A DNA stretch of 64,000 nucleotides from Escherichia phage HX01, in the sequence record NC_018855.1; one strand, 5' to 3'. Positions within the stretch are counted from its first letter, which is position 1, and each line of letters begins with the position of its first letter. The position numbers and the translations under genes are program-made. This document shows positions 19,573 to 23,448 of this stretch, one piece after another. A model generated the notes under the pieces. It searched no databases. It worked only from the letters and a program-made list of their open reading frames with translations, and had not been told where the DNA came from.

Positions 19573-20124
19573 TTACTTAAAGATATTTATAATCGCTTTG
19601 AAAATAGATTTGTTTTCAAGGTCAGGGAATTTAGGGAATTCGCCGCCAAGATGTTCATGTTTTTCTAAAAGGGCAAAGAATTTTTTGAGCTCTTTAAATT
19701 TTCGTTTTTCTTCTCTATTAGCAACCTCTGCGTCAATAAGAGAACTTAAAACACCGAATAATTTATAGAGTTCATGAATTTTCTTGTCACGTTGAACTAC
19801 GCGTTTATATGCTTCATCTTCCTTCCACCCGTCACCGGACCAAATGTCAAATTCACCAGGTTCTTCTGTAGTAACATTTTGAAGAGTACCTGGAGTGTCA
19901 ATAACAATTTTTTGCTTATCATAAGTCCATACTGTTTTTCCACGATGGTCTTCGACATATACCCATTCTTGTTCGCGTTCATCAAATACAACAGCATAGC
20001 CTTCTTTAGGGTCTAAAGGTTTTTTTGGTGTCGAATGAGCCGGAAATCCTACGCCTTTTAATGGTTTATAATTTTCTTCTTTGTAAAATTCTTTAGTGTC
20101 AAAATAATAGTGATAGAGTTTCAT
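19573..20124 (-). CDS. 38: gp38, tail fibre assembly chaperone (T4-type, 183 aa)
   Basis: 183 aa; MKLYHYYFDTKEFYKEENYKP... as in T4 gp38. Confidence 0.9.
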   Translation of the reverse strand: MKLYHYYFDTKEFYKEENYKPLKGVGFPAHSTPKKPLDPKEGYAVVFDEREQEWVYVEDHRGKTVWTYDKQKIVIDTPGTLQNVTTEEPGEFDIWSGDGWKEDEAYKRVVQRDKKIHELYKLFGVLSSLIDAEVANREEKRKFKELKKFFALLEKHEHLGGEFPKFPDLENKSIFKAIINIFK

Positions 20125-20154: not shown

Positions 20155-23100
20155 TTATGCTAAACGAACGATATAGTTAAAAGCAACGTTTTTAACTGTG
20201 TTTTCTGTATTTCCTGTGGCATTTACAGTTATTGTATGTCCATGGGAACCAATTGCAACAGTATGAGAATGAGCACCAATACCCACAGTATGCGTATGAG
20301 CACCAATACCCACAGTATGAGCATGGTTACCCGTAGCGCTAGTAGTTCCTGACCAACTATGAGTGTGGGCACCATCTGAAGAAGTTTTGGCTATATTCGA
20401 CCCTGCAGTAGCACCATTCACGGTTCCAGTGAATTTAGCGTTGGCGTTTGCACCTACACTATTATATCCGTCATAGAATATGTTATTGGGTATGCCGGCT
20501 TGTATCTGAGGGCCTGAACGCGCGTGTTGGTGCGCACCGGCGGAACTAGTATTACCGCTCACTGTATGGTTATGGTTACCAGTGGTATTACTGGTCTTAG
20601 TACCATAATCAAAGCTTGAAGTCGTTTTGCTACCGTAATCAAAACTAGAAGTGGTCTTAGTACCCAAATCCGTGTTTGATGCACTTGCACTATGGCTATG
20701 TGACTTAACACCGTCTGCTTCTGTACTTAATACAGCACGCCCAGATGGTTTACCCTTGATAGTTTGACCACGCATATCAGGCAGAGAGCCGGAAGGATAC
20801 ACAGCAGCTAACTTAGGATACAAGCCAGCATCAAATGTTTGACCTTCCATTATGGCGTAACCTTCAGGAGGTGTATCAGTAGGCCAAGGAATCGGAGCAC
20901 CAATTGGATAACTTGAGACAATATCCGTCTTAAGGTTATTTATTGTGGTATTCAAGTTAGCAAAATTGCCAGAACCACCGGTGATATTACCATCAGTACC
21001 AATACGAACATTACCAGCGCCTAATTTACCAGGAGAGTAAAAATCACCGTTTTTATTAAATTCCCAACCTAAATCCTTTATAATTGCGCCAGTAGAACCG
21101 CCATCGCCACCTTCGTGATAATGAACTCTAAAGTTACCACCATTAATTAAAGTACCAATAGAATAGCAACTATTATTTTGAACGTATCTTTGTTTCACAA
21201 TAGGAACATAAGTGCTTGTATCTGTTCTATCAATATTCATATAGAAAGGAGCACGAACGTTTTCATTATTTTGTGAAGCAAAAGAACCGGCTCCAGCTGG
21301 GCGAACAGCATCAGTACATTCTGCATCAATGTACGCCGACTGACCTATCTGCATTCTGAAATTAGGAGAAATGCGACTATTACTAGTAACAACAACAAGT
21401 TTGTTATCGTTGTCCACAGTAATCATATTACCACCAGCACCATCATCGCCTAACGTAACAGAATGACGCATTTGCACCATACCATTATTAAGGCTAATAC
21501 TAAGCGGGCGGAGATTACTTATTCCACCACTTTCACCTGCATCTTTAAGTGTAGGTATAATATACAAAGACGCTTCAGAACGACGGAAAATAGCTCCATA
21601 TTCAGCATTGTAAATACGGAAAGCATCTGCGGTATTACCGATTTTAACTTGACCTGTAATAGAACCACCGCCGGATAAAACAAGCCCGTTATCCATAGTA
21701 ACTTGTCCGGATAATGTACTTAATCCATTAACTCTAAGACTTCCATCGGTGATAATGCTCCCTCTTGCATTCAGTTGTCCATTAATTTGTGTTACAACAG
21801 GTCCCACAGTTTCTGAACCGGTTGGAGCCACACGCTGTGAATAAAAATAATATCCTTGTCCGTCAGCTACTTCAAAAACTGTTTCACGATTACGATCGCC
21901 GGATGCGTTAAATGAATTACCCCATGCTTTAACAGTTACATAACTCTTATTCTGACCTGCTCGAGTACCGCCTTCCCACATGATTTGCTTAGTGCCGTCA
22001 ATACCTGAAGCTGCTTTAAAAACTAGAGAAGCATTAGTTCCATCACCATTAAAATATAATCCATTATTAAGCTTTAACGTTTGAACAGAAGCGACGGTAC
22101 CATCAGCACGCAAACTTAATGTATTTGAACTAGTTTTAATATCTAAAATTCCTGGTTCAACAATAAGTCCTTCGGCCATGCCAACAGCCATACGACCTGT
22201 ACCACGGAAATAGTGATACATCTTGGCATTGCTGCTATAACCTATATGAGTCTGACCATCGCCGTTATTATTACCATCAATATCGGTGCGTGCGGTAAAC
22301 ATTGCTTGGTTGTTATTTGGAAAATCCCAGGTAGAACCGGAATCTCGACTATAACCAACCATCAATTTTTTAGTACTGTTAATACCGTTATTAAGAATAG
22401 TGCCGGCAGAAATACCATTCGCAACTAAATCGATAACCCCGTCACGAACCCATTTAATACCAGTATCATTGTCACCAATTGCAATACCTTTACCAAACGA
22501 AACCAATGGATAACGTCCTTGGTCACCAACATCAGCAAGACCTATACCTATCGAATTAGCAACAGACATACGCCCATCTGTGGTATAAGACCATTGATAA
22601 ACTTCAGCATTACGTCCCGTCCAATACGAAATATTCTGTGGTTTACCTGAACGAGCATCAGCAACTTCATGGAAAATAGCAGAAGAAACATGTCCGCGGA
22701 ATTTACGAAGGTAGTTTATACCATTAGTATCCAAATCCGTTTCGGTTGGAGTATACTGCCAAGTCGGTAATGAAACTAAATCATATGCAGTATCAATATT
22801 AGTGTCCCAAGATTTAGTGCTCACATTGATATTTTTGGTAATAACTTTAGGACCAATTAAAGAACCAGCTTTAGTTTCAATATTACTTTGAGTAACTAAA
22901 TATCCATTAGATACTAATAAACTTCCGGAATCAACTTGAAAATTACCGTTTCGATTAAAAGTCCAGTATTTTGAAGTCCCGGTTTCATCAATATAATGGA
23001 ATTTAAAACTACCTTCGTTTACTAATGTACCAGCAGAAAAAGTTCCATCTTTATAGCGTTGTTTAATCAGCGGATGGTATTCTGAAACAGAAGTAGTTGA

Positions 23101-23448
23101 ACTTAAATCTGTAAAGATAGGGGCTTTATTCAAATGTTGGTTGGCCCAACGAGCACCATTTCCAGCGGTTTTAGGTAAAAATTCAATATACTTACCGGCG
23201 TAAACGAACATATTACCATTGAGGTTAAATGTGCCGTTTTGTAAATAATCACCATTTTGAGTTACATTACCGTTAATATCCCCGCCCTTAGCAAAGCCTA
23301 GGCTAATAATATTACCGAGGTCATCTTTAGTAAAAAGAGTTCGATCTTTTAAGTTTATCGCTAATTCGCCTTCGGCTAATTGTGCCGCAGTAGGATTAAC
23401 TCCTGCTACTTTGCTTCTTTTAAATTGTATCTGTTTTAATGTAGCCAT
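20155..23448 (-). CDS. 37: gp37, long tail fibre distal subunit with C-terminal His-box receptor-binding tip
   Basis: 1097 aa; N-terminus [16 protein letters not shown]... as T4 gp37; C-terminal HxH repeats. Confidence 0.93.
20244..20324 (-). repeat. Tandem 27-nt repeats encoding His-box (HxH) units in gp37 C-terminal tip
   Basis: GAGCACCAATACCCACAGTATG(C/A)G(T/C)AT repeated twice plus a degenerate third copy; encodes GAHTHTVGI-type units. Confidence 0.75.
20593..20665 (-). repeat. Tandem about 30-nt repeats in gene 37 encoding KTTSSFDYG(S/T)
   Basis: Direct nucleotide repeat; protein shows [21 protein letters not shown]. Confidence 0.7.

Follow-up and report, generated by a model that had tools for sequence, protein, structure and literature searches.

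Tandem FDYG decapeptides in gene 37 of Escherichia phage HX01 as a probable old building block of the fibre-tip needle

We analysed a window of 64,000 nucleotides from Escherichia phage HX01 (sequence record NC_018855.1), in which the C-terminal part of gene 37 carries an in-frame tandem pair of decapeptides. Sequence comparison suggests that this repeat is an old, widespread building block of the needle and not a recent duplication. It also indicates that the number of layers in the needle stem is an old, quantised polymorphism across the family (n=2 to 7), with the units of the ascending and descending strands almost always matched. According to this analysis HX01 most likely has a four-layer stem with eight HxH (metal) sites, as against three layers and seven sites in T4. 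The features of the region, all on the minus strand, are listed below from the gene itself towards its 3' end and the gene that follows.

20155-23448, minus strand: gene 37, long tail fibre distal subunit, 1097 amino acids (open reading frame; match to 2XGF; gp37 annotation in the closest phages)
20758-20901, minus strand: collar domain, residues 850-897 (Pfam PF07484 Collar, E=2.5e-11, 43.8 bits against a cut-off of 24)
20692-20700, minus strand: HxH motif 1, HSH, residues 917-919, predicted start of the ascending stem (aligned to T4 H883/H885)
20656-20685, minus strand: predicted ascending stem unit U1, TDLG-type (xxxxTDLGTK), residues 922-931, third member of the 30-nt family
20626-20655, minus strand: copy 1, predicted ascending stem unit U2, FDYG decapeptide, residues 932-941
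20596-20625, minus strand: copy 2, predicted ascending stem unit U3, FDYG decapeptide, residues 942-951, directly after copy 1
20566-20595, minus strand: decamer carrying HxH motif 2, residues 952-961
20359-20532, minus strand: variable, predicted receptor-contacting head between HxH 3 (HQH, residue 973) and HxH 4 (HTH, residue 1028), equivalent to T4 tip 932-959
20311-20337, minus strand: predicted descending unit D1, ATGNHAHTV, residues 1038-1046, HxH 5
20284-20310, minus strand: predicted descending unit D2, GIGAHTHTV, residues 1047-1055, HxH 6, in the 27-nt tandem repeat
20257-20283, minus strand: predicted descending unit D3, GIGAHSHTV, residues 1056-1064, HxH 7, in the 27-nt tandem repeat
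20230-20256, minus strand: predicted descending unit D4, AIGSHGHTI, residues 1065-1073, HxH 8
20158-20235, minus strand: C-terminal tail, predicted to return to the collar, of invariant length (29 residues from the last HxH to the C-terminus)
19573-20124, minus strand: gene 38, T4-type tail-fibre assembly chaperone, 183 amino acids (Pfam PF02413 Caudo_TAP, E=4.2e-05)

The two FDYG decapeptides lie about 150 residues before the C-terminus of the gene 37 product and are identical at 9 of 10 residues and at 23 of 30 nucleotides. A repeat search with a 6-nt seed returned three members of a family with period 30 (100, 77 and 70% identity), the weakest of which (70%) is the decapeptide at 20656-20685, just before copy 1. 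The 30-nt array is missing from the list produced by Tandem Repeats Finder at a minimum score of 30, because the copies are too diverged. When the residues of gp37 were shuffled 2000 times, the best identity between adjacent decapeptides never rose above 7/10, compared with the 9/10 observed, and the repeat is therefore not a product of chance. Neither decapeptide contains histidine; the nearest HxH motifs lie 15 residues upstream and 8 residues downstream of the pair.

Next to these local features, we found that the last 281 residues of the gene 37 product match PDB 2XGF, the crystallised, trimeric receptor-binding tip of T4 gp37, with E=5.3e-89 (phmmer; query residues 4-281, in stretches), and that the 10-residue gap in T4 falls exactly on one FDYG unit. 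By its sequence the HX01 tip qualifies as a T4 gp37-type tip on four counts, namely homology, the Collar domain, the HxH series with the C-terminus, and the chaperone gene downstream. Its eight HxH motifs are at residues 917, 959, 973, 1028, 1042, 1051, 1060 and 1069, the conserved gp37-type C-terminal sequence is found at the end of the protein, and gene 38 is the next open reading frame, directly downstream of gene 37, and is annotated as a tail fibre assembly protein in all sampled relatives. T4 gp37 shares with HX01 the collar, the order of the HxH motifs, the 29-residue C-terminal tail and a gp38-type chaperone gene downstream. The two tips differ in that T4 has one FDYG unit and one GIGAHxHTV unit whereas HX01 has two of each, and the HxH spacings are 42, 14, 55, 14, 9, 9 and 9 in HX01 (eight motifs) compared with 32, 14, 37, 14, 9 and 9 in T4 (seven motifs). 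The head sequence of HX01 is unrelated to that of T4. The 14-residue repeat of Pfam PF03335 (Phage_fiber) was found in a single stretch of the 281-residue query, at query residues 96-109 around HxH 1, and not over the FDYG units at 116-135.

Previous structural work places these motifs. The T4 tip holds seven irons for its seven HxH motifs (PMC6957217), and its receptor-contacting part, residues 932-959 (PMC9603124, PMC6957217), lies between H929 and H966 (PMC6957217). The chain folds back on itself, so that the needle has six strands, and a longer needle has been proposed to go with more HxH motifs (PMC12609058). A review of the T4 tail (PMC3004832) gives the dimensions of the needle but no further detail of it. 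A sequence-only reading of this DNA had described an in-frame 30-nt tandem repeat in gene 37 at 20593-20665, and this is borne out, as that interval spans both copies. It had placed the repeat in the distal fibre shaft; we found it instead in the stem of the C-terminal needle of the receptor-binding tip. The same reading had set the repeat in a region that determines host range, a link that holds only indirectly, since the repeat sits in the conserved stem below the T4 receptor-contacting tip and not in the variable head.

A second repeat, with a period of 27 nt, was found at 20230-20337, about 100 codons downstream of the FDYG pair, by Tandem Repeats Finder together with the repeat search; Tandem Repeats Finder listed the array at 20258-20325, and about 300 nt separate the two repeat sites. 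Within it, the pair of GIGAHxHTV nonapeptides occupies 20257-20310, and D2 and D3 are identical at 24 of 27 nucleotides. T4 is without one GIGAHxHTV unit, just as it is without one FDYG unit.

This correspondence extends to a counting rule. Tips were gathered from the best 120 matches of a search of 5.8 billion proteins, 147 representatives at 50% identity, 160 IMG/VR loci, 34 loci from GTDB species genomes and 16 GenBank phages; duplicates were removed and only tips with 29 residues after the last HxH were kept, which left 291 unique complete tips. A distance of 29 residues from the last HxH to the C-terminus was seen in almost every complete tip, with 28 in a distant Pseudomonas locus (L129). 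If n counts the C-terminal HxH motifs that follow one another at intervals of exactly 9 residues, the first and second HxH in the 291 tips are 10n+2 residues apart (n=2-7). The classes were populated as follows.

spacing 22-23, n=2: 6 unique tips
spacing 32, n=3: 127 unique tips
spacing 41-42, n=4: 133 unique tips
spacing 52, n=5: 19 unique tips
spacing 62, n=6: 1 unique tip
spacing 73, n=7: 1 unique tip

The rule was followed directly by 287 tips, by 3 more after allowing for an extra or missing HxH, and was truly broken by 1; as the tips are related and the region recombines, such counts exceed the number of independent events and overstate the strength of the association. Independent events are fewer because a double crossover that exchanges the head would leave both stem halves linked even in the absence of selection. 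The three apparent exceptions have an extra HxH in the linker (9+33 with n=4; 19+33 with n=5) or lack the second HxH (69 with n=3). Many prophage tips obey the rule as well. The composition of the alleles is consistent with counting by units: n=2 alleles have the TDLG unit only, with the FDYG unit wholly missing, and n=5 alleles have a two-unit block doubled on both strands, TDLG-FDYG-TDLG-FDYG against AIG...-VMG...-AIG...-VMG... (20 residues against 18). The distal 14-residue HxH units showed the same symmetry between ascending and descending strands, being 0/0 in 135 tips, 1/1 in 108 and 2/2 in 2, with zero mismatches; a 12/12 variant of these units was also found. Furthermore, stems of two or three different n were found for each of 13 head-domain clusters, with heads of one cluster on n=3, 4 and 5 stems, and all are matched except for one metagenomic locus, L002. 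Two clades fixed by descent would not give such a pattern. We also computed the type of ascending unit (xDLG or FDYG) against the residue (A/V or G) that begins the facing nonapeptide; this pairing is confounded with stem position and relatedness and is not used as evidence.

To place the two kinds of unit relative to each other we used T4, in which the stem comprises residues 882-931 and 960-1009 and is mostly extended (PMC9603124), and in which G921 contacts F970 and G964 contacts H929 of the neighbouring chain (PMC6957217). The stem limits and these contacts all give i+j = 1891-1893, in a calculation in which each residue is taken to rise by the same amount on either strand. Numbering was based on a T4 record from a mutant clone that has head substitutions; the record served for the stem only, and its numbers agree with H929/H931 in PMC6957217. 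With that register, the T4 FDYG unit 898-907 lies opposite V984-GIGAHTHTV993, and the TDLG unit lies opposite AIGSHGHTI. The unit present twice on the ascending strand is therefore level with the one present twice on the descending strand.

These data can be combined in a model of the stem. The chain would run from the collar to the head and then double back, with the three decapeptide units (TDLG-type, then FDYG twice) forming the ascending strand of the proximal gp37 needle stem and each ascending decapeptide level with one descending His-box nonapeptide. In each layer one metal ion in the core would be bound by the HxH motifs of the three chains. The extra FDYG, matched by the extra GIGAHxHTV, would give one added stem layer relative to T4, and by analogy with T4 each layer would add one His6 metal site; with nine extended residues per layer, the stem would become longer by at most about 3 nm each time. 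Selection would act against mismatched alleles, as the chain has to come back to the collar; most likely the ascending and descending units match because a mismatched hairpin cannot close onto it. We consider it probable that this explanation is correct as a whole, that is, a matched-layer needle stem in which the repeat supplies ascending units and in which a fourth layer and an eighth metal site are predicted.

The sequence-only reading had taken the repeat for a recent duplication. On that explanation a lineage-specific, in-frame event, by slippage or unequal crossing-over, produced the second copy, possibly as a fresh host-range adaptation. The copies are indeed adjacent, in frame and nearly identical in protein, T4 is without one of them, and tandem duplications in gene 37 are known from T4 host-range mutants obtained in the laboratory (Tetart et al. 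1996, cited in PMC7002106 and PMC9603124). However, of the 7 differences between the 30-nt copies, 6 are synonymous steps over about 6.3 synonymous sites, which gives a saturated pS of 0.95 (over ten codons only), while conserved flanks compared between HX01 and slur14, GiZh, Ozark, T4 and SP18 gave pS values of 0.19-0.47. The closest database phages belong to Mosigvirus and Tequatrovirus, and HX01 and phage DCP548 are 100% identical from the PDMR motif to the stop codon. In DCP548, phi25-307, KAW3E185, pEK20 and slur14, whose tips are 83-100% identical to the HX01 tip, both copies match their HX01 counterparts at 30 of 30 nucleotides, and throughout these the two copies differ from each other exactly as in HX01. 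Since the same diverged pair is carried by these five phages, it is older than the spread of the allele among the two genera. Both this and the divergence of the copies contradict a recent origin. Among 16 phage genomes picked at even steps down the BLAST ranking, a sample that leans towards relatives of HX01, 14 have two stem units at this place, 12 of them as two FDYG copies, identical or nearly so. The two-copy genomes include TuIb and lambda (in Stf), as well as SP18 with a diverged pair, and only T4 and BYEP01 are in the one-copy state. Two copies are also present in 133 of the 291 unique tips, in many genera, which contradicts restriction to one lineage. Alignment of orthologues, which had been proposed as a check, thus did uncover alleles lacking a copy, in T4 and BYEP01, but the second copy is not confined to one lineage; conversely, both copies are carried by many orthologues and not, as had been envisaged for an ancient structural repeat, by all of them, as one-copy alleles exist. 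Finally, after a lone event the descending strand would lack one unit, but the partner unit is found there as well. Taken together, we regard a recent duplication as highly improbable. At larger distance the history of the copies appears less simple, since copy 2 of HX01 is nearer to copy 1 of GiZh and Ozark (26-27 of 30 nucleotides), a likeness that points to gene conversion or to repeated gain and loss. Copy-by-copy orthology holds among closer relatives only, and we make no claim as to whether n=3 or n=4 was ancestral.

A different explanation is that shared descent and the geometry of recombination alone make the unit numbers co-occur, with repeat number being neutral. The region is known to be mosaic, the relatives of L002 switch along the tip, the sequences are not independent samples, and one mismatch allele exists, all of which fit such an origin. 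Against this, six different states of n follow the same arithmetic, the n=5 state arose by a two-unit block on both strands, and the 14-residue units are symmetric independently of the others. Moreover, single crossovers have homologous DNA to use in the heads shared between n=3, 4 and 5 stems, and still a mismatch occurs in only 1 of 291 tips; the T4 register also sets the two units face to face. We therefore consider neutral co-occurrence rather unlikely, though clearly less so than a recent duplication. The locus might also act as a contingency locus whose variable copy number makes needle length change often among the phages of one population, given in-frame tandem repeats of 30 and 27 nt in a host-recognition gene and unit numbers that vary among related phages. 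But the copies (77% and 89% identical) have diverged too far for frequent slippage, and several genomes carry them fixed and without change. Switching would also take two changes, coordinated and about 300 nt apart, and single-strand variants were not seen among close relatives, so that this idea carries very little weight. The matched-layer stem is thus the reading that we prefer.

The one true mismatch to the matching rule is contig IMGVR_UViG_3300030021_000020 (locus L002, the same as L194), which has a spacing of 42 with n=3, that is, two FDYG units and three tightly spaced HxH motifs. Its single GIGAHTHTV unit is identical to that of T4 at 27 of 27 nucleotides, and its nearest relative switches every few tens of bases along the tip. 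Either the locus arose by natural recombination or the metagenome assembly is chimeric. Unless the contig is chimeric, its existence means that a mismatch may be tolerated.

Comparison with other systems places the HX01 repeat among known fibre tips. Lambda Stf belongs to the same tip family and has the same n=4 stem, with two FDYG units and four HxH motifs spaced 9 residues apart (L096); it differs from HX01 in its N-terminal fibre and head, its copies are more diverged (20 of 30 nucleotides), and its tip is 68% identical in nucleotides to that of HX01. Other prophage or Mu/P2-type fibre C-termini with Tfa chaperones group with lambda Stf in this tip family. Tetart and colleagues reportedly described, in 1996, laboratory-selected duplications in T4 gene 37 that expand host range, and in 1998 are said to have described recombination at a 'His box' (GXHXH), as cited in PMC3157838, PMC7002106 and PMC9603124. 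The junctions of duplications of this type are reported to lie in GXHXH His boxes. Like the HX01 repeats, these duplications are in tandem and in frame and affect the C-terminal part of the gene 37 product, and the descending 27-nt unit of HX01 is itself a His box; the two differ in that the T4 duplications are recent and laboratory-selected, whereas the HX01 units are old, diverged and fixed, and form a matched pair on two strands. A His-box-bounded duplication of this kind was rejected for the FDYG pair, whose decapeptides are without histidine.

The tips of the long and short tail fibres of Felixounavirus Bas63 have a T4-like collar, needle and head with HxH motifs and are distant in sequence from HX01. 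By cryo-EM they contain six to seven HxH motifs, and the number was suggested to scale with needle length (PMC12609058). That paper does not describe a rule for counting units or a coupling between ascending and descending strands. Among the papers open to searching, which do not include the key ones, none was found to state the 10n+2 coupling; the motif SSFDYG gave no paper in a full-text literature search, and nothing relevant came up for 'His box' together with gp37. Already established are the fold, the iron sites at the HxH motifs and the mosaicism of this region.

The HX01 allele is an ordinary, common four-layer form of a well-characterised fibre tip, and T4 is a shorter variant. As a fresh host-range mutation the repeat is a false lead. 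It is conceivable, at rather long odds, that the stem is a quantised length module whose two strands have to change together and in which n is tuned adaptively so that the head reaches receptors at different LPS/O-antigen depths; if true, needle length would be a host-range variable independent of the head and would supply a design rule for chimeric fibres. According to the matching rule itself, chimeric gp37/Stf fibres should keep both stem halves from the same layer class. The coupling between strands is a small, testable addition that follows naturally from the hairpin-like fold and is tidy more than surprising, and it predicts that most T4-type fibres would have eight, not seven, metal sites.

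In the window, the FDYG decapeptide repeat of the ascending strand of the gp37 tip stem (two units, 20596-20655) turned out to have a structural partner within gene 37, namely a second tandem repeat that encodes histidine-box units:

20230-20337, minus strand: 27-nt tandem repeat, four His-box nonapeptides (36 residues)

T4 has one nonapeptide unit fewer than the window. Among the 291 unique complete tips parsed, only one (1/291) had different numbers of ascending and descending units. This tip, L002 (1501-2106; IMGVR_UViG_3300030021_000020, also parsed as L194), carries two FDYG units against three tight HxH motifs, the C-terminal histidine motifs spaced 9 residues apart. Its single GIGAHTHTV unit is identical to that of T4 at 27/27 nt, and which relative is nearest varies from one part of the tip to the next. 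L002 arose either by natural recombination or through chimeric assembly.

From the PDMR motif to the stop codon, the window tip is 100% identical to that of phage DCP548, while the 846 nt at 20155-21000 are only 98.0% identical. Thus, all of the approximately 17 differences must lie in the 219 nt that encode the collar (20782-21000), a distribution which suggests a mosaic junction near PDMR.

Short contigs assigned to Sulfoacidibacillus thermotolerans (L112 and L118) and to Bacillota metagenome-assembled genomes (L098 and L100) contain fibre tips of the enterobacterial-phage type, which are 80-88% (in matched segments) and 50-57% identical to the window protein, respectively. These contigs are probably contamination of the non-enterobacterial assemblies. 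In Klebsiella sp. WOUb02, two plasmid records and the regions near either end of the chromosome record carry one and the same fibre tip, with two tight HxH motifs (L123-L126), and this recurrence may reflect a repeated prophage or phage-plasmid, or assembly duplication.

Compared with 2XGF, the T4 record MZ375356.1 (clone T4_583L) has head changes, with AWSGTG/AVSHRAG in place of AWNGTG/AISYRAG; these are receptor-contact substitutions of a laboratory mutant. Two protein representatives, P0225 and P0232, are alone among the tips in having an additional HxH within the linker of the ascending strand, which splits the spacing into 9+33 and 19+33, respectively; through these motifs, the ascending strand may supply further metal sites. 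The distal stem is built from a 14-residue unit, GAHTHSxSGTxxSA, of which 12-residue variants occur. Ascending and descending counts of this unit are equal (0/0, 1/1 or 2/2) in P0081, P0243, L104, L129 and many other tips, and this equality gives the needle a second, independent symmetry.
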